The notes beneath the pieces were generated by a model, which saw only the letters and a list, made by a program, of their open reading frames with translations, was not told the DNA's origin and did no database searches. DNA of 14,270 nucleotides, taken from positions 1 through 14,270 of the IMG/VR virus record IMGVR_UViG_2609459861_000003; one strand, written 5' to 3'. Shown piece after piece: positions 1 to 14,270 of this stretch. Source of the stretch: a virus. Its lineage: Duplodnaviria > Heunggongvirae > Uroviricota > Caudoviricetes. How positions within the stretch are numbered: position 1 is the first letter of the stretch; each line of letters begins with the position of its first letter. A program made the position numbers and the translations under genes.

Positions 1-1173
1 TCAGGCCTTATGGTGGAAATAATCACTCAGGCGGGAAAACATGCTGCCTTCCCCGACAGATTCCAGGGTAACCAGCGGCCAGTGCGCCACCTGTTTATCA
101 CGGTCGTAAAGTTCAATTTCCCCTACCCGCTGATGGGAGCTAATTGGCGCGGTGAGCTCTTTACCATCAAGGGTATATTTGGCTTTGATATGTGGAATTT
201 CGGCTTTCGGTAGCACCATCCAGAACTCTTGTTCCGTTCCCAGGGCGATATTTTCTTTATCGCCATACCAGATGCGTTCCGTACCGACCTTTTTCCCACG
301 GTGCAAAATTTGCACCGTAGTAAAGTTTTGTTGCCCCCAACGCAGTAATTTTCTTGCCTCTTCCTCACGACCTTTTGCACTGTCAGCCCCCATTACCACT
401 GCAATGAGACGACGCTGCCCATCTACAGCCGAAGCAATGAGGTTAAAACCGGCACCAGAAGTATGACCCGTTTTCAGGCCGTCAACATTCATGGTTTTAT
501 CCCACAATAACCCGTTACGGTTTTGCTGAGTGATACCGTTCCAGGTGAGGCTTTTCTCACTGTACATATGATAAAACTCGGGCTCGCCGTGGATGATAGC
601 GCGAGAAAGCACGGCTAAATCATAAGCCGAGCTATGCTGGCCAGGTGCATCCAGACCATGCACTGTTTCAAAATGCGTATCCTTGAGATGCAGCTTCTCG
701 GCATAGTTGTTCATCATTTCAACAAACTGCCGTTGCCCACCGGCAATATAGTCAGCCAGAGCAACACAAGCGTCATTTCCGGAATCCACAATTAAACCAC
801 GGCTTAAATCACGTACCGATACGCGATCGCCCTCTTTCAAAAACATCAGTGAAGAACCGACAAACACCGGATTATCTTTCGCCCACGCATCACGCCCCAC
901 GGTGACAATATCGTCTGGCGTAATGCGATGACTATCGATAGCGCGATCCACGACATAACCCGTCATCAGCTTTGTCAGGCTGGCGGGATTGCGCTGTTGA
1001 TGCTCATTACCCGCGGTGAGAATCTGACCGGTGGTGTAATCCATCAGTACCCAGGACCCGGCTTGAATCTGTGGAGGCTGAGGTGAAAAAGGAATGTTTT
1101 CCGCCGCAAAACCAGACGATAAGTTAAAAACGAACAAAGAAGCGGCAATAATAAGACGGCGTTTCAACAGCAA
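1..1173 (-). CDS. dacD: D-alanyl-D-alanine carboxypeptidase DacD (PBP6b), S11 serine peptidase
   Basis: Complete 390-aa ORF with stop at 1-3. N-terminal signal-peptide-like segment; SxxK (SLTK), SGN and KTG active-site motifs of class A low-MW PBPs. Distinct from DacA/DacC as recalled. Divergent neighbour is sbcB, as at the E. coli dacD locus. Confidence 0.85.
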   Translation of the reverse strand: MLLKRRLIIAASLFVFNLSSGFAAENIPFSPQPPQIQAGSWVLMDYTTGQILTAGNEHQQRNPASLTKLMTGYVVDRAIDSHRITPDDIVTVGRDAWAKDNPVFVGSSLMFLKEGDRVSVRDLSRGLIVDSGNDACVALADYIAGGQRQFVEMMNNYAEKLHLKDTHFETVHGLDAPGQHSSAYDLAVLSRAIIHGEPEFYHMYSEKSLTWNGITQQNRNGLLWDKTMNVDGLKTGHTSGAGFNLIASAVDGQRRLIAVVMGADSAKGREEEARKLLRWGQQNFTTVQILHRGKKVGTERIWYGDKENIALGTEQEFWMVLPKAEIPHIKAKYTLDGKELTAPISSHQRVGEIELYDRDKQVAHWPLVTLESVGEGSMFSRLSDYFHHKA

Positions 1174-1375
1174 ACCCTCAGGAGTTTCAAATAGCTGTTC
1201 TTTTTACGGAAATACTTATGAACTGGCTGGAATAAAGTGCAAGAAAATGTGACTACCCTCCCATTTTTATCTGACATGATCTGTTGCCACTCGCTGTCAA
1301 ATTATCGCGCTAAAGCTGATTAGCACGGTGATATTTGATACTCTGGCAGACAGCAGAAATAACGGATTTAACCTA

Positions 1376-1438
1376 ATGATGAATGACGGTAAGCAACAAT
1401 CTACCTTTTTGTTTCACGATTACGCGCAATACCCCTGA
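1376..1438 (+). pseudogene. sbcB: Exonuclease I (sbcB) 5' end interrupted by prophage insertion
   Basis: ATGATGAATGACGGTAAG... encodes MMNDGKQQSTFLFHDY, matching the SbcB N-terminus as recalled (next residues should be ETFG). Here the frame continues AQYP then stops at 1436-1438, so host/phage junction is at about 1424/1425. Confidence 0.6.
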
Positions 1439-1810
1439 GAACCGCCATGAACAAGGGTTTCATGATTTGTGATTTTAGTTTGGTACGCAATTTGGTACAC
1501 AACACAATTTTCACTTCAGCGGGTAGTCATCAAACTCACCATAACGAGCATCGTTAATGATGTATGTGATCACCACAAACATCACATCTGGAATAGTTCC
1601 GTTTTCATGCGCAGGTATTTGTTCACGCCTCCCTTTCTGCAAATCCTAAAGATGAGATTTTGGGGTTTTGGGATATCTTTTATCCTCAGTTCTCTATCCA
1701 TTATGCAAACCAGTAATGAACCATCACCGTGTGATAGTGAGGCATCTGCCACGATAAGCGCAGAGAAATGATGCAGTGGTGGGCGGACTGGCTGGACGAA
1801 AAGACACAGT

Positions 1811-1844
1811 AATCAAAAGCGGCAGGCCACATAAAAAGCCTGCC
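1811..1844 (-). terminator. Putative intrinsic terminator of the LexA-controlled operon
   Basis: Inverted repeat GGCAGGC / GCCTGCC (1821-1827 and 1838-1844) with a 10-nt loop, directly after the stop at 1845-1847; followed on the minus-strand RNA by GCUUUUGAUU. Confidence 0.45.
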
Positions 1845-2162
1845 TTATACCGCTACGCTGTCACTTCTCACATCGATGATGGTGTGTGTCACCACGCCGG
1901 CGACAGTGATATCATCCAGGGCCTCGCCTTCAATCGCTTCGCCGTCTTCAGTAATCAGGGCCCTCCCTCTCAACGTGGCAAGCTCAGTCCCGCCGCCGTG
2001 CTGGATCAGAACCTGACTACCCTGCTTTGGCTTCAGGGAGATATCCAGCACAACATAACCGCCATCCCTTTCGAAAACGCGGGTGTTAGGACCAACATTG
2101 CATATCGAGTTAACGGACAGTCGCTGCTCGACGTAGTCCGCTGCGGGTGAAGGAAAGCCCAT
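1845..2162 (-). CDS. UmuD'-like S24-family protein (HumD-like); Ser/Lys catalytic dyad apparently absent
   Basis: 105 aa starting MGFPSPAADYVEQR, which matches UmuD immediately after its Cys24-Gly25 self-cleavage site (recalled UmuD: ...CGFPSPAADYVEQRIDLN...). C-terminus DDITVAGVVTHTIIDVR parallels UmuD DTLDVFGVVIHVVKAMR. No GDSM serine motif and no aligned catalytic Lys visible by eye. ATG overlaps upstream stop by 1 nt (TAATG). Confidence 0.6.
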   Translation of the reverse strand: MGFPSPAADYVEQRLSVNSICNVGPNTRVFERDGGYVVLDISLKPKQGSQVLIQHGGGTELATLRGRALITEDGEAIEGEALDDITVAGVVTHTIIDVRSDSVAV

Positions 2163-2401
2163 TACAAAACCCTACCCATGTTAGCCATCATCCACAAACG
2201 GTTTTCGCTATGGTCGGTGGTTTTGTCGACAAAGTACGTCTGCTCTCTAGATATCCACGCATTAGCCTCTGAGTCGGTAAAGTGCAGCCCACGCCGGAGC
2301 AGCGCTGACACAAAATCCTTTGTATGCAGATACTGGTAGCCTTTGGAGTTGCGCAATACCGACTCGCGGAAAGCCTGATAGATGTCTGACTGACGGTGCA
2401 T
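2162..2401 (-). CDS. Hypothetical 79-aa protein, first gene of LexA-box operon
   Basis: ATG at 2401-2399 preceded by GGAGGG with 6-nt spacer; LexA box 19 bp upstream; translationally coupled to the downstream UmuD'-like gene. No family recognised. Confidence 0.55.
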   Translation of the reverse strand: MHRQSDIYQAFRESVLRNSKGYQYLHTKDFVSALLRRGLHFTDSEANAWISREQTYFVDKTTDHSENRLWMMANMGRVL

Positions 2402-2419
2402 GATCTTCCCTCCGATGAT

Positions 2420-2439
2420 TACTGTTTTTATATACAGTA
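2420..2439 (-). promoter_or_regulatory. LexA (SOS) box overlapping the promoter of the 79-aa/UmuD'-like operon
   Basis: Minus strand reads TACTGTATATAAAAACAGTA = CTG-N10-CAG with perfect TACTG/CAGTA arms and AT-rich centre (consensus TACTGTATATATATACAGTA). Flanked by a 10-bp inverted repeat TGATCTTCCC / GGGAAGATCA. Confidence 0.7.
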
Positions 2440-2620
2440 GTTTTACTGTAAGGGAAGATCAATAGCTGTTGCGACTATCAATGGTAGTAACCGGAAATGT
2501 TACTGAATCATATGACTTTGTTGGCGTTCAGCCAATGAATTCCATCTGTTGAAGTATTGGCTACGGCACTGGAAGGTTCATTGGTTTGAATGCTCTGCCA
2601 TCAAAGCCTAGTGGTGATTA

Positions 2621-2872
2621 TTAATCAATTATTGAGAAATTGCTCAGGTATGTTTCTTTAGCCAAAGAAAACACATCATCAGGTTCTCCACTGAGAGTTA
2701 CTACGTTGAAATCGAATATTTTATTTTCCTTGCCCTCTCCATCATAAATTCCGATAGCACTGATATAAAGATCTCCATCTTTCACGGTGTCATCTATGTA
2801 GGCAAAACATCCTACCTTCGATTCGCCATAGCGAGAGTTCGTCGATATGTAATCACCTTTCATGTAAGTCAT
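2621..2872 (-). CDS. Hypothetical 83-aa protein, AT-rich, coupled to the tailspike gene
   Basis: ATG at 2872-2870 overlaps the tailspike stop (ATGA overlap); ORF track gives an alternative TTG start at 2884. No family recognised. Confidence 0.45.
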   Translation of the reverse strand: MTYMKGDYISTNSRYGESKVGCFAYIDDTVKDGDLYISAIGIYDGEGKENKIFDFNVVTLSGEPDDVFSLAKETYLSNFSIID

Positions 2873-4203
2873 AGTGTTCCCCAAGCAGCTCTGAAGATGG
2901 AATATGCGTATGCGCTATTTAAATAAGATGTGTAGTCTCCGGCAATATAGTCCTGACTGGATACATCCCATTTCCTTACTACAGCATAGGATGATGTGAC
3001 GCTATAAACTAAATAATAATAACCGTTTATTAGCATGTATTCACCGGCAGACAGTAGCGAGCTCCCCATGGCTATTACTGTTTCTCCAGAAACAATCGTA
3101 TTGTATAGCGAGTAAGCAGGCCCCCAGCCACTGTTGAATGGCAAATTGCCTGTAGCCCGAATGAGGTTATCTTCCCCAGTCGTAGCGGAATACATCATGT
3201 ACGGCGCGGTGAATGAACAGCGATAGTACCTAGTGTTGTTTGCGGATGGCCAACCACGAGGTGTCGTGTTGTACGGTATGCCATCTGTCTGAACTCCGTT
3301 GTAGACCTGCTGAACCATTCTTGTATAGACACATCCGTTAGATTTTTTGGGAACGTAAAGAAAACACCTGCCAATGCTTTCATGGTTATTCACCCCAATA
3401 TCAACGTAAATCATCCCTCCAGTTGTCACAAAGGAGTCAATACAGTTTTTTAGTGTGTTGTTATAAACGCGAGTGTAACCAACTGCATTCTTCCAGCGGA
3501 TGCCCTGGCTGGAGGCAATATCCGCCCCTGTTATCGTGCATCCAATTACAGAACAATTATACGCAGCTGTATTTATCCGGTTAAAGAAAACACCAGAGTT
3601 ACTAAATCCTGAAATACGGCACGAAGATATTGCCACGTTTCCGCATGATTCGATGAACACTCCTACGCTTACATCACGGATAGTGTTATTACTAACAACA
3701 ACATCCTCCGCAACTCCCTGTCCAGATTCGTCAGTTACGTTACCAAAGATATCAATGCCATTATCACCGCAGGAGGCCACGGCACATCCCGTAATGGTCA
3801 TCCCGTTGGGGCGTTCACACTGAATGCCAATATATTCAACGTTGTGAACGTAGCAGTTCATAATTCTTGAGTTAGAACAGCCATAAACCGTATTGTTAGC
3901 TCGGCGTAAATAAATCCCTCCAGAAGTGCTATCTATCGCCTTAACGTTATCAATAGTGACATTATCCGAGTCCAAGATATTAATGCAGGTAATCCCCGTT
4001 CCGGCAGCGGTGCCACGGCTGCCGTTAAGCGTGATCCCCTGAATCTTGCAGTTATCGGCGGCGCCTTCCCAGTTTGTAATGATTGCGCCGCTGGCTGAGC
4101 CAGTAAAATTGCCATCAAGCGTGATTGCTCCGCCGCCCATCAGTGTTACACCACTACGCATACACAGCGCACCTCGACCCGCAGCAACCTCACCAGGTAT
4201 CAA
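2869..4203 (-). CDS. Tailspike/tail-fiber protein fragment with right-handed parallel beta-helix (pectate-lyase-like); N-terminal virion-binding part missing
   Basis: 444-aa ORF rich in Gly/Asn/Ser/Thr/Val/Ile/Cys repeats typical of beta-helix rungs (e.g. NCYVHNVEYIGIQCERPNGMTITGCAVASCGDNGIDIFGN). Frame is open upstream to 4266 with no ATG and no RBS; first listed start is TTG. Abuts the helicase fragment. Confidence 0.65.
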   Translation of the reverse strand: MIPGEVAAGRGALCMRSGVTLMGGGAITLDGNFTGSASGAIITNWEGAADNCKIQGITLNGSRGTAAGTGITCINILDSDNVTIDNVKAIDSTSGGIYLRRANNTVYGCSNSRIMNCYVHNVEYIGIQCERPNGMTITGCAVASCGDNGIDIFGNVTDESGQGVAEDVVVSNNTIRDVSVGVFIESCGNVAISSCRISGFSNSGVFFNRINTAAYNCSVIGCTITGADIASSQGIRWKNAVGYTRVYNNTLKNCIDSFVTTGGMIYVDIGVNNHESIGRCFLYVPKKSNGCVYTRMVQQVYNGVQTDGIPYNTTPRGWPSANNTRYYRCSFTAPYMMYSATTGEDNLIRATGNLPFNSGWGPAYSLYNTIVSGETVIAMGSSLLSAGEYMLINGYYYLVYSVTSSYAVVRKWDVSSQDYIAGDYTSYLNSAYAYSIFRAAWGTL

Positions 4204-4601
4204 AGTTGAATTAGGATTGAGAGTAACGGAGAATTCACCTCCAATGAGAATATTGGTTGGGCCGCTTCACGAACCTGCATTGCATAGGCAACGATGTTTG
4301 CGGCGCTTGGCGTGTTCTTTGCGATCTCAGCGATATAAGCAAAACCGCCAACAGACGCCGTTAACGATTTACGCTCCAGTTCATCGAAAAGCGTCAGGCC
4401 ATCTACTGGCTTTTGCTCCCGGTGCATTCTGGTTATCTCTTCGAAAAGAATTTTGTGTGGTCGGCTGTAAAATGAATCAGGCTTCAGCATCGCCAGAACT
4501 TTCTGGACGCGCTCACTGCTGTCATCATCCAGAAGCAATCCACCAATCACCGCCTGCTCTGCCTCGATGCTATGGGGCGGCGCATAAAAATTATCGGTCA
4601 T
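4200..4601 (-). pseudogene. DnaB-family replicative helicase, N-terminal fragment only (P22 gene 12-like), truncated at deletion junction
   Basis: MTDNFYAPPHSIEAEQAVIGGLLLDD...GGFAYIAEIAKNTPSAANIVAYA matches the DnaB N-terminal domain (E. coli DnaB PPHSIEAEQSVLGG...GGFAYLAELSKNTPSAANISAYA). Only about 115 helicase-like residues, then unrelated sequence and a stop at 4200-4202. RBS GAGG before ATG at 4601. Confidence 0.75.
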
Positions 4602-5481
4602 CGTGTTCACCCTCACGAACTTTCAGGTAGGTATTGTCGTTAAGCAGGAAATCAAATCCCTTTTTGTGCCAGACGGTTCCGCGCTGATGGTTTGGGCGCT
4701 CTTCGAACATCCATCGGCAATTTTCGCCTACGTAGCTCAAATAATTTCTCCAGTCCTGCATCGTGAACCCATGCCCGTCAAGCTGGCGGGTTATCACTCC
4801 GGCTTTGCGCCAGAACGTTCGGATCTGGTTTTTACGCTTGTCATTCAGTGCGCGGATTTTTGGCGCTTCAGGAAGGATTTCGTGGTAAGCATCGACAACA
4901 TCCTGACAGCTAACGGAAGGTTTTTTCTTGTCAGACTTTTTGTCTGCTGCGGTACTCTCTAATACGTCAGTATTAGAGATATTATTTATATTATTGTTTA
5001 TGGACAACCGTTGGACAACCGTTGGACAATCTCCGCTGAGAGCCGCGCCATTACTGGTGTTTGCGTTGGACAACCGTTGGACAACCGTTGGACAATTTTT
5101 TGCCTGAAAATCGTCATATTTAACGATTGTAAACAGGCTAAATTTCTTCCCCATCGAGCAAATATTAAGCATCCCTTTCGACTCAAAAGTCCGCAATAAG
5201 CTCCGAACTTTGTTGTCGGGGATGAATGTTTCTCTGACCAGCGACGGGCGTCCAGTTATCATCTGACCGCGATCAACAGTTATCGGCCCGATATCCGTAT
5301 TGACGACAGTAGATTCGTGATTAGCCTTGAGGATTAAGTGAAGCCAAAGATGTACTGCCTGAGAGTCCTTATAGAGCCTGCTGTCCATAAACTGGCGGTG
5401 TATAGAGACATACCCCATACTGGATGCCTCCTGATGTTGTACAGGGTTATGCCTGTAATCAGCTAACTTAACGACGCCCAT
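4591..5481 (-). CDS. Replication initiation protein, lambda O / P22 gp18 analogue, with origin iterons inside the gene
   Basis: 296-aa ORF with GGAG RBS before ATG at 5481; located cII -> O -> helicase as in lambdoid phages; contains the iteron cluster. Sequence unlike lambda O. Confidence 0.7.
   Translation of the reverse strand: MGVVKLADYRHNPVQHQEASSMGYVSIHRQFMDSRLYKDSQAVHLWLHLILKANHESTVVNTDIGPITVDRGQMITGRPSLVRETFIPDNKVRSLLRTFESKGMLNICSMGKKFSLFTIVKYDDFQAKNCPTVVQRLSNANTSNGAALSGDCPTVVQRLSINNNINNISNTDVLESTAADKKSDKKKPSVSCQDVVDAYHEILPEAPKIRALNDKRKNQIRTFWRKAGVITRQLDGHGFTMQDWRNYLSYVGENCRWMFEERPNHQRGTVWHKKGFDFLLNDNTYLKVREGEHDDR
4960..5097. repeat. Phage replication origin: two clusters of three 11-bp iterons (GTTGGACAACC, GTTG/CAAC dyad) plus adjacent AT-rich unwinding region
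   Basis: Direct repeats at about 5000-5029 and 5065-5095 with exact 11-bp periodicity; AT-rich stretch 4960-5000 immediately downstream in the direction of O transcription. Confidence 0.7.
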
Positions 5482-5639
5482 GTTTCACTCCTGCTTTGGC
5501 TAGTCTGTAAACACCAACAAGGCGCTCTGCGAACGCCCTGTTATTTGCTGCGGCTACCACTAATCCCTCAGGTGAATCAGGGTGTCGAATCTCTTCTTTT
5601 TCCTGGTATTTCTTACGACGTTTTGTCATAATTACTCCT

Positions 5640-5716
5640 GTGGATTGATCCAGTAATTCCCTCAGAATTGCATATCAATTTGCTTAAAATCCTCGGTGGC
5701 GGCCGGGGATTTTTTC
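5640..5716 (+). ncRNA. oop: oop-like antisense RNA overlapping the cII 3' end
   Basis: Sequence GTGGATTGATCCAGTAAT...CCTCGGTGGCGGCCGGGGATTTTTTCTTT is colinear with lambda oop as recalled (GTTGATAGATCCAGTAATGACC...GGTTGCCGCCGGGCGTTTTTTATT). Terminator hairpin CCUCGG/CCGGGG (5691-5708) plus U-run; candidate -10 CATAAT at 5627-5632. Confidence 0.6.
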
Positions 5717-5958
5717 TTTGTGACTTCATCAAGCGCATACTTAAAAGCCCTGCTAATCGGACTGATGTCTGATGCCATTCCAAAAGCACACAAGACCGAA
5801 GCAATAAATCTCCAGTCCGTTCTGCTTATCTTCGATTCATGACAGCCAATCATCTTTGCCAGACCGCGCTGGGTAAGCGTTGACAGGTTGATGAGTAAAT
5901 CAGTTTCAGCGCGATCAATTTCTCGCTGTGTTGGCTTGCTGTAACTTGCTTGTGTCAT
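5662..5958 (-). CDS. cII: CII-family transcriptional activator (lambda cII / P22 c1 homologue)
   Basis: 98 aa; C-terminus KKKSPAATEDFKQIDMQF parallels lambda CII KKRPAATERSEQIQMEF; position between cro and O; overlapped by oop and by the PRE -35. Confidence 0.8.
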   Translation of the reverse strand: MTQASYSKPTQREIDRAETDLLINLSTLTQRGLAKMIGCHESKISRTDWRFIASVLCAFGMASDISPISRAFKYALDEVTKKKSPAATEDFKQIDMQF

Positions 5959-5967
5959 TTGTTAATT
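5936..5967 (+). promoter_or_regulatory. PRE-like CII-dependent promoter (TTGC-N6-TTGC) directed toward cI
   Basis: TTGCTGTAACTTGC at 5936-5949 overlapping the cII start codon, with candidate -10 TTAATT at 5962-5967; same arrangement as lambda PRE. Confidence 0.6.
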
Positions 5968-6042
5968 TTCCAATAGTGAATAGTTAGTTGAAAGGTATGC
6001 GTGGAAACGCATATGGCCTTAGTTGGTCAGATATATTGGGAC

Positions 6043-6057
6043 TCGCTTTGTCAGCGA
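6043..6057 (-). promoter_or_regulatory. nutR boxB-like hairpin, P22 type (loop GACAA)
   Basis: Minus-strand UCGCU-GACAA-AGCGA between cro and cII; same loop as the nutL hairpin. Confidence 0.5.
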
Positions 6058-6095
6058 CGTAGGACGAATGTCCATTGTGAAAATAGCGGTGTTAC

Positions 6096-6305
<210 letters not shown>

Positions 6306-6322
6306 TTAGTACATGCAACCAT

Positions 6323-6386
6323 TATCACCGCTAGAGGTAAAATAGTCAACACGCACGGTGTTAGATATTTATCCCTTGCGGTGATA
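6323..6386. promoter_or_regulatory. OR1-OR2-OR3 operators with divergent PR (toward cro) and PRM (toward cI)
   Basis: OR1 TATCACCGCTAGAGGTA (6323-6339), OR2 CAACACGCACGGTGTTA (6347-6363), OR3 TATCCCTTGCGGTGATA (6370-6386). PRM -35 TAGATA / -10 TAGATT with leaderless cI ATG at 6397. Confidence 0.9.
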
Positions 6387-6393
6387 GATTTAA

Positions 6394-7110
<717 letters not shown>

Positions 7111-7258
7111 TCGGCAAGGTGTTCTGGTCGGCGCATAGCTGGTGAAAAAATTATTTAATGCGGTGTATTGGCTGATTGTAACCCCATGTAACATCTTGCC
7201 GTCACCATTTCGGTGGTTAGATTTTTAATAAAAAAACAAATGTATAGCAAGGTTTTTT

Positions 7259-7738
7259 ATGGATAAAATTAATTACCCACCCCTGTTTGAGCCAGGGTTC
7301 CATGACATGGATGAAGCTGGATTAAAATCGTATTGTGTCGATTGCTTTCCTTCATCATCCAGGCGAGGCATGCTATACTGTAATTTTATACAGCTACTCG
7401 AATCTATTCGAGAATTATCTGCTCAATATGGCTGTTTTACAGAAATATGGGTTGATGGTTCATACACCACGTCTAAACCAGAGCCTGATGATATTGATAT
7501 TTTGTTGGTATGTGACTATAGCAATATAAACTCAATACCTGTCATGCTTCGGGGCCGCGTCGATAATTTGCTTGACCGAAACTACATCAAACAAAACTAC
7601 AAAATTGATGTCCTACTACTCATGAAGAATTTAGATGACCCTAACTATGATTATGAGTACTGGCGTAGCTACTGGCGCGGTTGGTTTGGTTTTGATCGCA
7701 GTGAAAACCCGAAAGGGTTAGTGAGGATTTTTTTATGA
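7259..7738 (+). CDS. Nucleotidyltransferase-fold protein (Pol-beta-like NTase motif), first gene of rex-position cassette
   Basis: 159 aa; helix then FTEIWVDGSYTTSKPEPDDIDILLV, i.e. hG[GS]-x9-DxD with G67-S68 and D78/D80, and a third acidic residue in KIDVLLL (D117). Stop overlaps next start (ATGA). Confidence 0.6.
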   Translation: MDKINYPPLFEPGFHDMDEAGLKSYCVDCFPSSSRRGMLYCNFIQLLESIRELSAQYGCFTEIWVDGSYTTSKPEPDDIDILLVCDYSNINSIPVMLRGRVDNLLDRNYIKQNYKIDVLLLMKNLDDPNYDYEYWRSYWRGWFGFDRSENPKGLVRIFL

Positions 7739-8667
7739 ATGATAAATCAATGTTTAAAAATTGCGATAAACGCATTGATTTCATTCAAAAAGAAGTCGAT
7801 GCAATGAAGCAAAACAAAACCAGGTCCTTTGCTGACATGCTTCTTTATCGCTCCATGGATTCTCATCTGAGCGATTTGAAGGCCGAAAAATTAAAGCAAG
7901 ATAGTCGGCACCCACTTATCGATTTTTTTGAGCTGCGGCTGAAAGGCTCTGAGGTTGACTTTGGCTCTATTCCTTTAGAGCTGCTTGGGGCTATTTCAAC
8001 AAATCTTGCAGCGCTAATACAAAGAGCAACACACAAAATTGCCTCAGGCAAGGACTCAAAAAAAGTTCCCTACGACGTGAAAAGCTCCTTAAACCTCAGG
8101 CTGGCTGATTTATCCCCTGGGTCTACAAAATTGGGCGTCACCTTCTCTACAGGAATAGCAGAATTAGTAGAAACAGTACCCAGCAAGGCTGTAAAAGGCA
8201 TATTCGATTTGTTGTTAAGCGATGACGACAACAACTTCATGAATCACGTCGCTGAAATTGGATACAATTCCACTGTAAGCCTTAAGAGAATCGTAGAGGA
8301 ATGCGATAAACACAACTTAACATTTGATGCAAGTTGGACCGGTCCATTTAGTAATGGCACCAAGGTGGCAACTATTGACTCCAATAAAATTAAGTACTTG
8401 GTGAGTAGACTTACATCAACCATTTCATCCCCTCCCATTACTGAAACGGTTACAGGCGAACTGGTCGTTCTATCCAAATATGGGAAGCTGGAGCTTGATG
8501 TTGGTGGTGAACATTTAAAGGCTTCCTATCCGATTGAAATGCTAGATTTAATACAAAAAAAACACAAGGTCGGACAGATTGTTTCTCTTTTAGTGGAGAC
8601 TACTGAGATTCACAATGATCGCATAGGTCTGTACCGTAAAAACCATCTTGTTAAATCGGTTCTTTAA
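7735..8667 (+). CDS. Hypothetical 310-aa protein, second gene of rex-position cassette
   Basis: Translationally coupled to the NTase gene; AT-rich by eye; no transmembrane segment or known catalytic motif recognised. Confidence 0.6.
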   Translation: MNDKSMFKNCDKRIDFIQKEVDAMKQNKTRSFADMLLYRSMDSHLSDLKAEKLKQDSRHPLIDFFELRLKGSEVDFGSIPLELLGAISTNLAALIQRATHKIASGKDSKKVPYDVKSSLNLRLADLSPGSTKLGVTFSTGIAELVETVPSKAVKGIFDLLLSDDDNNFMNHVAEIGYNSTVSLKRIVEECDKHNLTFDASWTGPFSNGTKVATIDSNKIKYLVSRLTSTISSPPITETVTGELVVLSKYGKLELDVGGEHLKASYPIEMLDLIQKKHKVGQIVSLLVETTEIHNDRIGLYRKNHLVKSVL

Positions 8668-8674
8668 TATCTCA

Positions 8675-8700
8675 CCCGGCCACCGCGCCGGGTTTTCTTT
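8675..8700 (+). terminator. Intrinsic terminator closing the cI/cassette operon (tIMM-like)
   Basis: CCCGGC-caccgc-GCCGGG hairpin followed by TTTTCTTT. Confidence 0.7.
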
Positions 8701-8846
8701 GCCTCACGTTCGCCCCAAAACACATAACCAATTGTATTTATTTGAAAATTAATAGATACAACTCACTAAACATAGCAATTCAGATCTCTCACCTACCAAA
8801 CAATGCCCCCCTGCAAAAAATAAATTCATATAAAAAACATACAGAT

Positions 8847-8909
8847 AACCATCTGCGGTGATGAATTATCTCTAGCGGTGTTGACATAAATACCACTGGC
8901 GGTGATACT
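8847..8909 (+). promoter_or_regulatory. OL3-OL2-OL1 operators and PL promoter
   Basis: OL3 AACCATCTGCGGTGATG (8847-8863), OL2 TATCTCTAGCGGTGTTG (8867-8883), OL1 TACCACTGGCGGTGATA (8891-8907). PL -35 TTGACA at 8881-8886 and -10 GATACT at 8904-8909; near-identical to lambda PL as recalled. Confidence 0.85.
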
Positions 8910-8977
8910 AAACACATCAGCAGGACGCACTACTCACCAGGGCGGTGAATATACAACGATTCAAACATGAATCTACG

Positions 8978-8992
8978 GCGCTGACAAAGCGC
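8978..8992 (+). promoter_or_regulatory. nutL boxB hairpin, P22 type
   Basis: GCGCTGACAAAGCGC: 5-bp stem with GACAA loop, matching the P22 boxB RNA as recalled, about 65 nt downstream of the PL start. Confidence 0.6.
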
Positions 8993-9059
8993 AATAACTG
9001 GTCAGACGAAGAATTCATTCGTCATATGAAAGAATTAATCGGTAACGAAGGAGATATTC

Positions 9060-9230
9060 ATGTCACTTGCAACCACAGTGAAGGAGAGCAAGTTACAGAG
9101 ACGCATGTACACGCAGCAGGCGTTAATGTATCGCCAGAAGGGAGATCGTGAAGGTGTTCGCGTATTTTTAAATGCGGCAAAGACTGAAGTATTAAATCAG
9201 CGTTATTTCCTTGGGCCATGTCCATTCTGA
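9060..9230 (+). CDS. Hypothetical 56-aa protein immediately upstream of erf (position of P22 arf)
   Basis: Not in the ORF track (<60 aa). Strong RBS GGAGAT with 6-nt spacer before ATG at 9060; ends 11 nt before the erf ATG. Sequence not arginine-rich, so not an N-like antiterminator. Confidence 0.45.
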   Translation: MSLATTVKESKLQRRMYTQQALMYRQKGDREGVRVFLNAAKTEVLNQRYFLGPCPF

Positions 9231-9240
9231 GAACAATCAT

Positions 9241-9846
9241 ATGAGCAAAGAATTTTACGCAAGACTGGCAGCTATTCAGGAGAATCTGAACGCGCCAAAG
9301 AATCAGTACAACTCATTCGGAAAATATAAATACAGAAGCTGCGAAGACATTCTTGAAGGCGTTAAGCCGTTACTGAATGGCCTGTTTTTATCAATCAGCG
9401 ATGAAGTTGTGTTGATTGGTGATCGGTATTACGTGAAAGCCACGGCAACTATTACCGATGGCGAAAACAGTCATACGGCAACCGCTCTTGCACGAGAGGA
9501 AGAAAGCAAGAAAGGGATGGATTCTGCACAAGTTACGGGAGCTACAAGCTCTTATGCACGCAAGTATTGCCTCAATGGTTTGTTCGGCATTGATGATGCG
9601 AAAGATGCAGATACAGACGAGCATAAACATCAGCAGAACGCAGTAGCAAAGCAATCAAAACCATCACCTACACCTGAACAGGTTCTAAAAGCATTCACTG
9701 ACGCAGCAATGCAGAAAAACACCGTGGAAGAGCTTAAACAGGCGTTCGCCAAAGCGTGGAAGATGCTCGAAGGCACACCGGAGCAGCACAAAGCGCAGGA
9801 CGTTTACAACATCAGACGAGACGAATTAGAAGGAGCGGCTGCTTAA
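9241..9846 (+). CDS. erf: ERF-family single-strand annealing protein
   Basis: 201 aa from ATG 9241 (track gives upstream TTG at 9211); ERF-like core GKYKYRSCEDILEGVKPLL...DRYYVKATATITDGENSHTATA; location in the PL operon. Confidence 0.75.
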   Translation: MSKEFYARLAAIQENLNAPKNQYNSFGKYKYRSCEDILEGVKPLLNGLFLSISDEVVLIGDRYYVKATATITDGENSHTATALAREEESKKGMDSAQVTGATSSYARKYCLNGLFGIDDAKDADTDEHKHQQNAVAKQSKPSPTPEQVLKAFTDAAMQKNTVEELKQAFAKAWKMLEGTPEQHKAQDVYNIRRDELEGAAA

Positions 9847-10229
9847 TGGCACATTCGATTACTGTAAGACTAAACAAGCCCGCAAGAGAGTTTCAGGCCG
9901 GGGAAAATATCGGATTCAACATCCGTGCTGGCGTTCAGTATTACGATCGCCAGACAAAAAAGAAAGAATGGACAAACTACAGCGCCGTTGTATTTGCCAA
10001 GCCGGGGGCGCAAGCGGATTACTACCGTAGTGTTCTTGTTGAAGGTGGCATTGTAGAAATTACCGGAGAAAACATCAGGGTTGATGTTTATCAGGGGCAA
10101 AATGGTCAATCAATCACTCTTGAATTACTGAATGCGAAGATTGGATTTGCAGCTTCAGGAAACAGCCAACAGCAGCAAAGTAGCAATCATCAAAATCATC
10201 CTGAATACGACGATTCAATTCCATTCTAG
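9846..10229 (+). CDS. ssb: Single-stranded DNA-binding protein
   Basis: 128 aa from ATG 9846 overlapping the erf stop (TAATG). OB-fold-like core and Gln-rich linker ending in the acidic tail DDSIPF, typical of SSB C-termini. Confidence 0.8.
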   Translation: MAHSITVRLNKPAREFQAGENIGFNIRAGVQYYDRQTKKKEWTNYSAVVFAKPGAQADYYRSVLVEGGIVEITGENIRVDVYQGQNGQSITLELLNAKIGFAASGNSQQQQSSNHQNHPEYDDSIPF

Positions 10230-10252
10230 ATTAGCAAAATAAGGATTCCATT

Positions 10253-10549
10253 ATGCCAGCGCCTCTGTATGGTGCGGATGACCAGCGCCGCTGTTCCGGA
10301 AATTCCGTATCGGAGGTGCTGGATAAATTCAGAAAAAACTACGACCTGATAATGTCGCTACCGCAGGAAACGAAAGAGGAAAAGGAATTTCGCCACTGTA
10401 TATGGCTTGCAGAGAAAGAAGAACGAGAGCGAATTTACCAGACATCAATCCGACCATTCCGCAAAGCCACATATACCCACTTCCCTGAATATATCGACCC
10501 GCGCCTGCGTAATTACCGCTCACGCTATGGCGCTATCAGTAATGACTGA
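10253..10549 (+). CDS. Hypothetical 98-aa protein (position analogous to anti-RecBCD abc genes of P22; unverified)
   Basis: AAGGA RBS with 7-nt spacer before ATG 10253; family not recognised. Confidence 0.5.
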   Translation: MPAPLYGADDQRRCSGNSVSEVLDKFRKNYDLIMSLPQETKEEKEFRHCIWLAEKEERERIYQTSIRPFRKATYTHFPEYIDPRLRNYRSRYGAISND

Positions 10550-10559
10550 GGAATTAACA

Positions 10560-10850
10560 ATGAAAACAATGAAGCTAAACATCGACCTCGGAAAATACGT
10601 TATTACCGGAACCAAACACGATCTGATTCTTAGCGAAAGAGGAATTATCAAAGAAGGCGAGAATGCAGGGAAAGAAACACTAAGCCGTATCGGTTATTAC
10701 AGCAAGTTTGAGCATCTGGTTAAAGAATTATGCAACCGTGAAATCCTGTTATCTCAGGCGCAGACGCTACAGGATATTCAGCAGCATATCGAGACTTTAG
10801 GTGTGTCACTTAGCATGGCTATTGACCAGTTCGTGGAGAGTAAATCATGA
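10560..10850 (+). CDS. Hypothetical 96-aa protein
   Basis: GAGGAA RBS with 6-nt spacer before ATG 10560 (in-frame alternative ATG at 10542); family not recognised. Confidence 0.5.
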
Positions 10851-11011
10851 GAGGACTTGCATACAATCCCGGCATTCTTCCGGCAGAAATGATTATTCGC
10901 CAACGCGTAAAGCCAATGCCATCGAGAGAGGAATTGCTTAAGAGAAATTCTTTTCCATCAGTGAATCAAAACAAATATCTGAATGCAATGTGGCGGAGTG
11001 GGAAGAAATGA
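10847..11011 (+). CDS. Hypothetical 54-aa protein (not in ORF track)
   Basis: ATG overlaps the upstream stop (ATGA) and its own stop overlaps the HNH gene ATG (ATGA): coupled on both sides. Confidence 0.35.
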
Positions 11012-11709
11012 AACAAATGTCACTAATTGAGATGGATGGTTTTCTGAAAGGTAAATGCATCCCAAGTGATTTAAAGGTTAACGAAACAAACGCTGAATAT
11101 CTGGTGCGTAAATTTGCTGAAGCGGAGGCCAAGTGCGCGGCGCTGACTGACTTATTTGGCGATGTGAAAGAGATTTTTGGTTTTAAGTATCGCTATTTCA
11201 TCACCTCAAAGGGGCTCATTTTCTCATTGGCCTCTGGAGAACTAAAGCAATTAAACCCAACCATGCGCGGTAAGAACAGAAATCAGTATTTATTCGTTAG
11301 GCTGGAGTTTGAAGGAAAACTAAAAGGCGTGAACATCCACCGATTAGTTGCTGAAAACTTTCTCGGCCCTAAGCCTTCTGATGAGCACGTAATTAACCAT
11401 ATAGACGGGAATAAACAAAACAATGATGTTTCAAACCTGGAGTGGACGACGGTAGCGGGCAACACTCAGCACGCATATAGAACAGGTCTGGCCGGGGGAA
11501 GAAAACACGGATCGTATAAAGGTCCAGTCTGCGCTGAGAACGAGGAAGGTTTTGGGTATGTGTTCTTTGACAGCAAACAGGCCATCGAGGCTGGATTTAA
11601 CCCAAACTCAATCAGGGACGCTGTTGTTAAGCCATGGAAGAAAGTATTCGGATTCTATTTTAGTCGCATCAATACCGATGCCCAGCTTCGCAAAGGAGGC
11701 AACCAGTGA
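11008..11709 (+). CDS. HNH endonuclease (homing-endonuclease-like)
   Basis: 233 aa from ATG 11008; HNH motif region [31 protein letters not shown]. Confidence 0.75.
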
Positions 11710-12296
11710 GCAAGATTGATTATCAAAAGCTTCGTGAAATCGCTGAAAAAACAAAAATTGCCGGTGAAGCACCTGTAATGCCTTTCGATCAGCGAATTAA
11801 TGCGCTTAACGATTTTATGAAGCACTTTTCGCCAGATATCGCGCTGGCATTGTTGGATGAACGGGAAAGGAACCAGCAATACATAAAACGCCGCGACCAG
11901 GAGAACGAGGATATTGCACTAACGGTATGGAGGCTGCTAATCGAAAACGGCCAGCTTGTTGCCGATACGCTACGCCACTTAGCTGATAACGAAATCGACT
12001 CTGATTATTTTGCTATCACCTCAACGAATGAGAACGGTACTGAAATTGATCATGAGATGGCTATTACCGATTACGCACTGCAAGCTGCCGGAACTGTAGA
12101 CGAATTGGTTGCGGCGCTGGAATCCGCAGAGAATCGCATAGCAGAACTGGAGGAGCGGGAAATACTGCTCCCGGAACGTAGCAGCATGCTTCATCGAACA
12201 GATTTTCACGAGGATTACCAAACGGTAATGGCATACAAAGTTTCTGAAGTCATCGCTGCAATCCGCTCCGCTGGCATTCGCATCAAAGGAGAGTGA
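11706..12296 (+). CDS. Hypothetical 196-aa protein with coiled-coil segment (possibly Ead/Ea22-like)
   Basis: GTG start at 11706 overlapping the HNH stop, preceded by AGGAGG with 6-nt spacer; acidic coiled-coil segment ESAENRIAELEEREILL. Confidence 0.5.
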   Translation: MSKIDYQKLREIAEKTKIAGEAPVMPFDQRINALNDFMKHFSPDIALALLDERERNQQYIKRRDQENEDIALTVWRLLIENGQLVADTLRHLADNEIDSDYFAITSTNENGTEIDHEMAITDYALQAAGTVDELVAALESAENRIAELEEREILLPERSSMLHRTDFHEDYQTVMAYKVSEVIAAIRSAGIRIKGE

Positions 12297-12297
12297 G

Positions 12298-12489
12298 ATG
12301 GACGGACAAATATCAATCGTTCGACCAGGAGCATGTGACGATCGCGAAATACGAATAATTATTCGTCTGGCAATGGGGAAAGCAATAACTGCTCTCATTA
12401 CCCCAGAAAATCTCGCATTAGCATTAACAGGAAAGTCAGCCCTGCCAGTAGAGCTAAAGCTGCGAAATGTTGAGATTAAGGTGAAATAG
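12298..12489 (+). CDS. Hypothetical 63-aa protein
   Basis: AGGAGAG RBS before ATG 12298; 1-nt gap from the upstream stop. Confidence 0.45.
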   Translation: MDGQISIVRPGACDDREIRIIIRLAMGKAITALITPENLALALTGKSALPVELKLRNVEIKVK

Positions 12490-12491
12490 CT

Positions 12492-13163
12492 ATGACCACT
12501 ATTACCAAAGAACGTATCGAATTATTCATTAAAAATCCGCTTGAAAACGGGCTTACTCGTGGCGAACAAATGGAACTGGCACGAATTGCACTGACATCAC
12601 TGGAACGCGAACAGATTCGCCACGAGCATGCCAAATGGTCGGACTCCACATTTGGCTGCGTTGGCCCCATTGGTCCACTGAAACACCTCTCAAAAGAGGC
12701 ACTGGAAGCCGCAGCCGAACCAGACGATCTTAGCGAGTGGGCTGATATGCAGTTTCTGTTGTGGGATTCACAGCGCCGTGCTGGCATCAGCGATGCTGAA
12801 ATTACCGCTGCTATGGAAGATAAATTGAAGATCAACATGGAGCGCCAGTGGCCTGAGCCAAAAGATGGTGAGCCTCGCTTGCACATTAAAGAACCCGGCA
12901 ACTCTCCGGTAATTCCGGATGGTTGGGTCATGGTGCCGAAGAGACTAACAGCCGAGAACGGCGCTAAGGGTGTGCTATCCGGTGAATTTTCAGAAACTAC
13001 GTTTATAAGCTGCCCGGAATGCTTTGGTGATGATGATTGCGAAACTTGTGACTGTAGCGGGAGAATCGAAATCAAGGTTCCAGTCAGTTGGACAACTATC
13101 AAAACTATTTGGGCTAAAGGGTGTGAGCACTTTTCAATAGTAGCACCGCAGCAAGATGGGTGA
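12492..13163 (+). CDS. Putative MazG-like nucleotide pyrophosphohydrolase domain protein (DUF550-like) with Cys-rich C-terminal region
   Basis: 223 aa; acidic helix pattern LSKEALEAAAEPDDLSEWADMQFLL reminiscent of MazG-type dNTP pyrophosphohydrolases common in prophage early regions; C-terminal CPECFGDDDCETCDC. Assignment from memory only. Confidence 0.45.
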   Translation: MTTITKERIELFIKNPLENGLTRGEQMELARIALTSLEREQIRHEHAKWSDSTFGCVGPIGPLKHLSKEALEAAAEPDDLSEWADMQFLLWDSQRRAGISDAEITAAMEDKLKINMERQWPEPKDGEPRLHIKEPGNSPVIPDGWVMVPKRLTAENGAKGVLSGEFSETTFISCPECFGDDDCETCDCSGRIEIKVPVSWTTIKTIWAKGCEHFSIVAPQQDG

Positions 13164-13229
13164 TGAAAACAAGTATTTATAACTTAAAAGCATTAAAAAA
13201 TCGCTTATAGACCAAAAGAAATCTACGTC

Positions 13230-13259
13230 AAATATTACTATATTTCAATGTGTTATAAT
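13230..13259 (+). promoter_or_regulatory. Candidate promoter with extended -10 (TGtTATAAT) for the 80-aa gene
   Basis: TGTTATAAT at 13251-13259 in an AT-rich intergenic region following a 125-nt gap after the upstream operon. Confidence 0.35.
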
Positions 13260-13289
13260 TACCCCGTACATAAAATGGGGGGACACAAA

Positions 13290-13532
13290 ATGTTCAAACG
13301 CTGCATCACCAAGTGTGGAAGCACACCTGACATCCAAGCTTTTATTAATGAAGATGGTAAGCTTGTTGTTGAGAGGAGTGGTCCTTTTATTAGCAAACAA
13401 CTTATCATTACCTCTCCAGCGGAGATGGCCGGAGAATGGATAGTTTCTGAACCAGAGGAGTTGCACATCCCGCTTCCTTATGGCCCTCAGGGACTGATTT
13501 ATAACCGTTATGTTCAGAAGGAGGCGGGTTGA
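13290..13532 (+). CDS. Hypothetical 80-aa protein
   Basis: GGGGGGA RBS with 6-nt spacer before ATG 13290 (track start 13248 is less likely); preceded by candidate promoter. Confidence 0.45.
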   Translation: MFKRCITKCGSTPDIQAFINEDGKLVVERSGPFISKQLIITSPAEMAGEWIVSEPEELHIPLPYGPQGLIYNRYVQKEAG

Positions 13533-13812
13533 CAATGTCAGGCATAACATCGCCGAGAAATCGAAAGAAAAACAGAACAAGGTAAACGTTGACCTTGCAG
13601 CATCAGGCATGGAGTACAGAGAGCGCCTTAACATACCTGTTATCACTGAGCAGGTATCATGAGAGCAACCTGAGCACTCACGCGAGTATTTCATGGAGCG
13701 CATCAGATACTATCGCGAGCAGTCGTTAAACATGCCCAAGGGAAGCAACCCATGGTATATCGATATGGATGAACAGAACGCCAAGAAGTAAACGCAATTT
13801 GAACGAATGCGA

Positions 13813-13839
13813 ACCCGCCGAGTGCGGGTTTTCTTTTAT
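13813..13839 (+). terminator. Intrinsic terminator
   Basis: ACCCGC-cgagt-GCGGGT hairpin followed by TTTCTTTTAT. Confidence 0.55.
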
Positions 13840-13880
13840 CTGAACTCGCTACGGCGAGTTTTGTTTTATGGAGATGATAA

Positions 13881-14048
13881 ATGCACTTCCGAGTTACAGG
13901 TGAATGGAATGGAGAACCATTCAACAGAGTTATCGAAGCAGAGAACATCAATGACTGCTATGACCACTGGATGCTGTGGGCGCAGATAGCACATGCAGAA
14001 GTAACCAATATTCGAATTGAAGAACTGAAAGAACACCAAACCGCCTGA
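13881..14048 (+). CDS. Hypothetical 55-aa protein upstream of xis (not in ORF track)
   Basis: GGAG RBS with 7-nt spacer before ATG 13881; encodes MHFRVTGEWNGEPFNRVIEAENINDCYDHWMLWAQIAHAEVTNIRIEELKEHQTA; stop lies inside a terminator hairpin. Confidence 0.45.
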   Translation: MHFRVTGEWNGEPFNRVIEAENINDCYDHWMLWAQIAHAEVTNIRIEELKEHQTA

Positions 14049-14064
14049 TGGCGGTTTCTTTTTG
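14039..14064 (+). terminator. Intrinsic terminator upstream of xis
   Basis: AACCGCC-tgat-GGCGGTT hairpin followed by TCTTTTTG. Confidence 0.6.
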
Positions 14065-14078
14065 CCTGGAGAATTAAG

Positions 14079-14270
14079 ATGACCGATACCAGCCTGATTC
14101 CTGAGAAAGAAGTGATGAACAAGCTCGGTGTTTCATCACGTCAGACAATCTGGAACTATACCAAACGGCATGGATTTCCGAAGCCAGTCAGAACCCACCC
14201 CAAATCATACCTTCGTGAAGCTGTTGAAGGGTGGATTCTTAACGGTGGCGTTAATCAGAAATGCTCCTGA
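14079..14270 (+). CDS. xis: Excisionase / AlpA-family helix-turn-helix DNA-binding protein
   Basis: 63 aa; GGAG RBS; HTH-like VMNKLGVSSRQTIWNYTKRHGFPKP; position at the end of the early-left operon where xis-int normally lie; stop at the window edge. Confidence 0.7.
   Translation: MTDTSLIPEKEVMNKLGVSSRQTIWNYTKRHGFPKPVRTHPKSYLREAVEGWILNGGVNQKCS

Follow-up and report, generated by a model that had tools for sequence, protein, structure and literature searches.

A prophage operon with a umuDC-type LexA box pairs a shortened UmuD'-like protein with a small predicted winged-helix protein

In enterobacteria, damage-induced mutations arise mainly through DNA polymerase V (Pol V), whose activation is delayed by tight LexA repression and by slow cleavage of UmuD. 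Phage genes for UmuD'-like proteins are known, and the closest described case is HumD of phage P1, which is annotated as functionally complementing UmuD' (with host UmuC) and as having a LexA site; McLenigan (1999) is the reference given for this precedent in PMC11541004. Here, we describe a related operon in a 14,270-nucleotide (nt) stretch of viral DNA (IMG/VR record IMGVR_UViG_2609459861_000003, positions 1 to 14,270; hereafter the window), in which two minus-strand genes for proteins of 79 and 105 amino acids (p79 and p105) follow a LexA (SOS) box. Our preferred reading, to which we give a probability of roughly 0.45, is that this is a LexA-repressed two-gene accessory operon ('moron') in the slot between the tail genes and the attachment site (att), and that p105 acts through host UmuC, either providing the accessory subunit of Pol V or modulating it. 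The family is already annotated ('UmuD-like', 'S24/S26 family peptidase'). What is new relative to the literature searched is a short subfamily with a deleted active site, its umuDC-type promoter and its conserved coupling to p79, a predicted winged-helix protein.

The operon and its closest described relatives

HumD of P1, like the 'UmuD-like' proteins gp26 of N15 and gp23 of phiKO2, is a phage-borne, pre-cleaved UmuD' homolog that starts M-GFPSPA, as does p105. The P1 gene also shares with the operon a LexA box upstream, the lack of an adjacent umuC and a C-terminal tail of the ...DDxPVI type. However, P1 HumD has 129 residues, whereas p105 has lost the 11-residue Ser60 loop and further parts of the C-terminal half, has another residue in place of Lys97 and has acquired a new motif, ITxDGEAIEGEALDD. 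The longer forms belong to PHROG 811 and the short ones to PHROG 3469, and p105 is preceded by the coupled p79 gene, which P1 lacks. The Escherichia coli umuDC operon has the identical SOS box, a homologous promoter, an identical 13-residue N-terminal arm and an S24-like fold comparable to that predicted for p105; in contrast, p105 is without the 24-residue N-terminal pro-segment, the cleavage site, the Ser-Lys dyad and umuC, and the p79 gene sits between the promoter and the UmuD'-like gene. A similar layout is found in the impCAB operons of IncI plasmids (locus L027 in our set), where a LexA box is followed by a gene for a protein of about 80 residues and then by a umuD homolog, but ImpC is DinI-like, and ImpA is full-length and cleavable, has both Ser and Lys, and is followed by impB, a umuC homolog. 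p79 is not a homolog of DinI or ImpC (hhalign probability 0.1% against ImpC of L027; no match to Pfam DinI). Finally, Tum of phage 186, the dinI-gfoA locus of Gifsy and AntC of N15 are small proteins produced from LexA-repressed prophage promoters, often with a link to dinI; p79 differs from them in having no sequence or family match, in its genomic position and in residing with a self-cleaving cI. The Gifsy-type dinI-antirepressor locus was considered as an equivalent and rejected, as it occupies a different position and no kinship with it was detected.

The N terminus of p105, M-GFPSPAADYVEQR, is exactly that of UmuD'. Residues 2-14 are identical to UmuD residues 25-37, the start codon being placed at the equivalent of UmuD Gly25 (ATG-GGC), as a first, sequence-only reading of the locus had noticed, and the phmmer match to UmuD covers residues 2-43 only. 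Neither an in-frame coding sequence 5' of the p105 ATG nor an internal Ala/Cys-Gly self-cleavage site was found. Compared with K-12 umuD, the 13 arm codons show six synonymous and no non-synonymous differences, which argues that the arm has been kept by selection and not acquired by recent transfer. The arm (M-GFPSPA-x-DY) is invariant across a family whose members are otherwise only 35-50% identical.

Profile searches placed p105 in PHROG 3469 ('UmuD-like'; E 1e-45) and gave a match to the NCBIfam HumD profile (NF051876) over residues 1-101 (positions 1-121 of 129; E 3.9e-12), with a score of 46.3 bits that is far under the curated cutoff of 120 bits. Pfam S24 (PF00717) did not match p105 even at E <= 1, whereas it matched the cI protein of the same window at E 7e-29. 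The AlphaFold2 (AF2) model of p105 is all-beta plus one short helix, and its top matches in the PDB all belong to UmuD' or to the C-terminal domains of LexA and lambda cI (probability ~1.0, TM score 0.5-0.6, with Foldseek E-values of only ~0.01). Thus, p105 is predicted to have the beta-rich S24 core fold, and its suspected kinship with S24 proteins is upheld by the UmuD'/HumD profile matches together with this fold; on the other hand, it has neither the Ser-Lys dyad nor a match to the family hidden Markov model that would make it an S24 peptidase.

We then compared 6 genuine UmuD' sequences, 7 long pre-cleaved (HumD-like) forms and 12 short forms in one alignment. Ser60 and Lys97 are invariant in genuine UmuD'. 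The long pre-cleaved forms have Ser, Thr or Arg in the Ser60 column and Lys, Trp, Met or Arg in the Lys97 column. All 12 short forms lack the 11-residue segment with Ser60 and have Ala or Gly in place of Lys97; two further segments of the C-terminal half are missing from them, and the new acidic motif, which is highly conserved, replaces a segment of UmuD. The loss of the dyad that the sequence-only reading had suspected is therefore real, but being 'catalytically dead' is less special than that reading implied: full-length HumD-like proteins are also partly without Ser and Lys. The ...DDxPVI tail is common to short and long phage forms and is absent from UmuD, which indicates that p105 is a minimized branch of the HumD lineage. 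The acidity of p105 (isoelectric point 4.55) was considered as a sign of DNA mimicry and discarded as uninformative, since UmuD' is equally acidic (4.54).

A 99-residue 'armless' relative of p105 was also observed in Enterobacter vonholyi (NZ_VTUC01000006.1; locus L017, 3940..4285). It starts MQATAQRFRLNELC, lacks GFPSPAxDY, retains ITEDGECLEGEALDD and has its own TTGATC-17 nt-LexA box. Its gene lies at a prophage end, with genes for an SGNH tailspike-like protein and an acyltransferase, and its stop codon is ~150 nt 5' of the start of the chromosomal umuDC operon. The protein belongs to a 12-member cluster from E. vonholyi and E. asburiae. This arrangement could have come about when the umuDC-type promoters common to both operons recombined; alternatively, the protein could be a variant with a link to Pol V.

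The LexA box of the operon, TACTGTATATAAAAACAGTA, has two mismatches to the 20-nt palindromic consensus TACTG(TA)5CAGTA. It is the only site in the window within three mismatches of that consensus, and such matches occurred in none of 200 dinucleotide-preserving shuffles. The same 20 nt form the box of E. coli K-12 umuD and that of a genuine Enterobacter umuDC operon. The near-consensus box of the sequence-only reading was thus correct, but not its distance of 19 bp from the ribosome-binding site: the box ends 6 nt before that site and 18 nt before the ATG, so the figure had in fact been counted to the start codon. The sequence around the box can be aligned with the promoter of K-12 umuDC, with TTGATAG, ATTGATCT, 17 nt and the box in this order; TTGATC and the core of the box do not vary among the 12 loci aligned, of which the K-12 promoter is one. 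With TTGATC conserved 17 nt 5' of the box, the box would cover the -10 element as it does in the aligned umuDC promoter; this element is weak (TACTGT), which is why a strict sigma-70 scan did not call the promoter. The identical box and the aligned TTGATAG and TTGATC elements therefore suggest that the phage operon uses a promoter and operator of the umuDC type with LexA over the -10, and, judged from these sequence features, the operon is very likely under LexA control. The umuDC operator is a strong LexA site, so tight repression, with expression only after substantial damage, would be expected for the phage operon too. A second CTGT-N8-ACAG, at 7378..7393, lies inside an open reading frame (ORF) without the flanking TA...TA, and was judged a probable chance match.

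The features of the operon are collected in Table 1.

Table 1. Features of the operon and of the adjoining prophage end in the window
Feature	Positions	Strand	Basis
Putative promoter elements: TTGATAG (2481..2475) and -35-like TTGATC (2462..2457)	2457..2481	-	sequence
17-nt spacer from TTGATC to TACTGT (first bases of the LexA box)	2456..2440	-	sequence
LexA (SOS) box TACTGTATATAAAAACAGTA, overlapping the presumed -10	2439..2420	-	consensus match; identity to the K-12 umuD box
Shine-Dalgarno sequence GGAGGG, 6 nt 5' of the p79 ATG	2413..2408	-	read from sequence; purine-rich GGAG/GAGG kept in homologous loci
p79, 79-residue small stand-alone protein, predicted winged helix	2401..2162	-	ORF; AF2 model
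Internal Shine-Dalgarno-like TAGGG in the 3' end of p79, 7 nt 5' of the p105 ATG	2170..2174	-	read from sequence
Stop/start overlap TAATG, the p79 TAA sharing its A with the p105 ATG	2164..2160	-	read from sequence
p105, 105-residue pre-cleaved, shortened UmuD'/HumD-like protein	2162..1845	-	PHROG 3469; HumD profile; alignment; AF2 fold
Intrinsic terminator GGCAGGCT-loop-GGCCTGCC, then GCTTTTGATT	1844..1811	-	terminator scan
Prophage-end remnant from operon to chromosome, with an intS-like integrase fragment at ~1752..1791	1425..1810	n/a	

The ribosome-binding site, the coupled genes and the terminator proposed earlier were all present. The terminator consists of an 8-bp hairpin with 6 G-C pairs and a T-tract directly 3' of the p105 stop codon, and it was the sole terminator-like site detected within 1700..2700. 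Translational coupling of p79 and p105 is supported at the level of sequence: homologous loci keep either an overlap (TAATG or TGATG, at most junctions between p79 and UmuD'-like genes) or a gap of a few nt, and in a second p79 subtype the codons of the C-terminal ...NGG spell GGAGG. Upstream of the LexA-controlled promoter, a sigma-70-like site (TTGGCT-17-TATGAT) was observed at 2507..2535 on the minus strand. No terminator was found between the operon and an 87-residue ORF (2621..2884, minus strand) that lies 3' of the tailspike gene and has no family match in Pfam or PHROGs. The upstream site and the lack of an intervening terminator mean that late or read-through transcription could also reach the operon.

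p79 belongs to PHROG 3893, labeled 'unknown function', and nothing in Pfam, NCBIfam, PADLOC or the sequences of the PDB matched it. When 1.84 billion cluster representatives were searched with a profile, only 210 relatives were returned, all of them small and none fused to a larger protein. The AF2 model made from a diverse alignment is confident (pLDDT 91.7) and has the winged-helix topology H1-b1-H2-H3-b2-b3, with structural matches. The net charge of p79 proteins ranges from 0 to +4; they are not consistently basic and thus give no strong hint of DNA binding. Two subtypes could be distinguished (...KGY...NMGRV and ...NGRRTVTT...NPNGG), and both pair freely with short and long UmuD'-like genes. 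It should be noted that many p79 homologs (P0251, P0257 and others) are named 'DNA polymerase V' by NCBI/UniRef despite having no similarity to UmuC or UmuD, which looks like annotation carried over from the neighboring gene.

Distribution and genomic setting of the module

The module is not peculiar to this prophage but is widespread and belongs to an already annotated family. At the nucleotide level it was matched in 154 of 5,426 complete E. coli genomes (~3%) and in 46 phage records, mostly of Klebsiella phages. Clustering at 90% identity gave 857 clusters for p105 and 804 for the p79 profile, some of which have thousands of members from K. pneumoniae. The order box-p79-UmuD'-like gene was found again in some 20 divergent prophages and phage-plasmids of Enterobacterales, and the pair is always found between tail-fiber or tailspike genes and att/int, or beside the partition genes of phage-plasmids, often divergent from dinI.

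Of the 22 loci examined that have a pre-cleaved UmuD'-like gene, 21 possess, at the same position, a CTG-N10-CAG box of the TACTGTAT...ACAGT type. The genera covered are Escherichia, Klebsiella, Raoultella, Kosakonia, Buttiauxella, Enterobacter, Pantoea, Atlantibacter, Leclercia, Erwinia, Rahnella, Lelliottia, Citrobacter and Kluyvera, and the set includes phage P1. The distance from box to UmuD'-like gene is 276-288 nt where p79 lies between (241 nt in one locus with a shortened p79) and 40-44 nt where p79 is absent (P1 and loci L012 and L036); p79 homologs precede both short and long UmuD'-like genes. No umuC-like ORF follows a pre-cleaved gene in any locus examined. By contrast, full-length umuD genes for which enough downstream sequence was available have, in every case but one, an ORF of ~420 residues behind them. 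The missing umuC, which the sequence-only reading took for a departure from the HumD precedent, is therefore no departure, since P1 humD also stands alone behind its LexA box; it implies that the pre-cleaved proteins depend on a host partner.

Pairwise ratios of non-synonymous to synonymous substitution (dN/dS) are ~0.1 for both genes, at dS values of up to 1.3-1.7, so p79 and p105 are real genes under purifying selection. The box, ribosome-binding site, overlap and terminator are kept across genera and in the viable phages mEp390, HK140, RothC and Midgardsormr38. A reading of the operon as a decaying remnant, in which a truncated umuD fragment and a spurious ORF persist without function in a defective prophage, could appeal to the deletion in the window described below and to the lack of a Pfam match for p105, but it is so improbable in view of the dN/dS values, the cross-genus conservation of signals, the presence in viable phages and the 857 and 804 clusters that we regard a pseudogene as ruled out.

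Several loci showed further variation of the module. In mEp390, HK140, HK225 and an E. asburiae phage-plasmid (loci L003, L004, L005 and L093), dinI is divergent from the p79/UmuD'-like operon, with the SOS box in the shared intergenic region, and together they form a compact SOS-modulator island. HK225 has p79 only: it retains dinI and an extended p79, and a DNA invertase gene occupies the place where the UmuD'-like gene would be. The Raoultella locus L008 (p79 at 3762..3998, p105 at 4001..4315) has an SOS box identical to that of the window and a p105 of 64% identity, together with a p79 of only 25% identity that belongs to the other subtype. From the sequences, this mosaicism suggests that cassettes may have been exchanged between promoter and arm-coding sequence, both of which are conserved.

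In the window, the operon lies at the end of a prophage. Positions 1..1173 encode the DacD carboxypeptidase, and for nearly all of the 5,420 E. coli genomes compared, similarity to the core region of dacD-sbcB, here intergenic sequence, stops at ~1424 (query position 325). Beyond this point the window is a lambdoid/P22-like prophage with a lambda-type cI, CII, an O-like protein, ERF and further early genes. The resident cI has complete helix-turn-helix and Peptidase_S24 domains (S24 E 7e-29). A block at 1752..4268 shares 99.7% identity with a prophage in E. coli HS, with similarity to HS ending at 1752; in HS, the same operon follows a complete tailspike gene (1,911 nt) and precedes an integrase remnant, annotated as an integrase pseudogene. 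The HS match, the order of tailspike and integrase and the core boundary make the operon the prophage's final transcription unit, ~420 nt away from where prophage and chromosome meet, in agreement with the location first proposed. The prophage is defective: a 138-residue fragment of the DnaB N-terminal domain (4200..4616) is joined to the C-terminal two-thirds of the tailspike (2869..4203, minus strand) with a junction at ~4268, so that the first ~170 codons of the tailspike and everything between it and the replication genes are deleted.

Elsewhere in the window, two genes directly 3' of cI, in the rexAB position (7259..8667, plus strand), match the PADLOC candidate defense system PDC-M63 (subunit A, E 2e-41; subunit B, E 7.5e-45); the isolated CTGT-N8-ACAG mentioned above lies in the PDC-M63A-like ORF. 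Rfam and tRNA scans over the whole window were empty.

Possible roles of p105 and p79

In our preferred reading, heavy DNA damage would lead to LexA cleavage and the operon would then be expressed in the same way as umuDC. Loss of the initiator Met, as expected when Gly is the next residue, would leave p105 with the exact N terminus of UmuD'. The protein would dimerize, and its arm would engage host UmuC. By analogy with P1 HumD, p105 may thus supply or modulate the Pol V accessory subunit, bypassing the slow RecA*-dependent cleavage of UmuD, and the co-translated p79 may be an accessory factor of the same SOS- or Pol V-directed function. An arm and a start position that do not vary, in proteins that have ceased to cleave anything, point to a role following cleavage, which would be engagement of host UmuC/Pol V. 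[quoted passage not shown]

Several points weigh against this reading. First, in the same model the UmuC C terminus lies against UmuD' residues S36, T71 and K73, which correspond to UmuD Ser60, Thr95 and Lys97 (PMC11791011); because the deleted loop and the lost Lys are the S36 and K73 contacts, productive binding of UmuC may be impaired. Second, LexA binding and the promoter are deduced from sequence, the AF2 model of p105, made from a shallow alignment, reaches only moderate confidence (pLDDT 74), the HumD score does not make p105 a member of that family, and no study of the short p105-type subfamily was found in the literature searched. Finally, the subtype of p79 is not tied to the type of p105, and either gene also occurs alone (p79 in HK225; the UmuD'-like gene in P1, L012 and L036). 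The free combination and the solo occurrences do not imply a specific p79-p105 complex, and the two proteins need not act together. p79 may still make a conserved contact, for example with the invariant arm.

The strongest competitor, though a rather unlikely one in our estimate, reverses the sign of the effect: p105, its UmuC-binding arm and dimer surfaces retained, would form non-productive complexes with UmuC, or heterodimers with UmuD or UmuD', and so block or retime error-prone synthesis or the UmuD2C checkpoint during phage replication. The loss of the Ser loop and of Lys97 in 12 of 12 short forms fits this proposal, as these residues are modeled to hold the C-terminal carboxylate of UmuC, and so does the replacement of a UmuD segment by the strongly conserved acidic motif. 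DinI is an inhibitor of UmuD cleavage, and dinI is the divergent neighbor in HK140, HK225, mEp390 and phage-plasmids; the armless relative directly 5' of chromosomal umuDC in Enterobacter also speaks for it. However, HumD, the closest characterized relative, activates mutagenesis, and UmuC binding could be retained without Ser and Lys because both residues also drift in full-length HumD-like proteins. On descent from HumD, we slightly favor a UmuD' substitute that bypasses the timing of activation over an inhibitor, but a lost cleft that is modeled to hold the UmuC C terminus keeps the inhibitory alternative very much alive. A bolder reading, about as unlikely, makes the short UmuD' mimic and p79 a joint and hitherto unrecognized prophage device that would seize or shut off host UmuC upon SOS induction, for example with p105 as an 'arm-only' plug of the active-site region of Pol V or as a poison subunit in dimers of UmuD/UmuD', and with p79 directing or stabilizing it.

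Two other explanations appear improbable. p105 might sit in the groove of the RecA nucleoprotein filament as an uncleavable pseudo-substrate, tuning the cleavage of LexA, cI and UmuD with an effect like that of DinI or PsiB. Its predicted S24 core fold resembles the RecA-bound domains of UmuD, LexA and cI (8gmt, 8gmu and 8gms are among the fold matches), and the association with dinI and the SOS control would suit such a decoy, but it leaves unexplained why the exact post-cleavage N terminus and arm should be invariant in proteins without any cleavage. No result of our analysis points to cI, which the sequence-only reading had also named, as a partner of p105. An equally improbable alternative makes p79 the key product and p105 a separate passenger: p79 would be a small LexA-controlled regulator or antirepressor, as are 186 Tum, Gifsy GfoA and N15 AntC, or else a PapI/PefI-like co-regulator, and would switch transcription of the phage or the host once damage has occurred. 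The resident lambda-type cI, with its complete S24 domain, needs no antirepressor; Gifsy antirepressor loci adjoin replication genes and not the tail end; and p79 shows neither a consistent positive charge nor any antirepressor similarity in Pfam, PHROGs or NCBIfam.

Implications for damage-induced mutagenesis

On the reading we prefer, a surrogate or modulator of UmuD' under SOS control, prophages probably tamper with the error-prone Pol V of their hosts. A prophage operon with the same operator as umuDC but a ready-made, pared-down UmuD' look-alike could advance or block the activation of Pol V. The short form would be a natural minimal UmuD', in which the arm is kept and the catalytic cleft discarded, and it may be useful for dissecting the UmuD' surfaces that UmuC needs. 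On the evidence of its promoter region, p79 would be a conserved protein of the SOS regulon with no assigned function. Because of its prevalence in K. pneumoniae and E. coli, the module could affect antibiotic-induced mutagenesis, the survival of induced phage genomes and the evolution of clinical resistance. If UmuC is indeed seized or shut off, common prophages of Klebsiella and E. coli would set the level and timing of damage-induced mutagenesis in their hosts.

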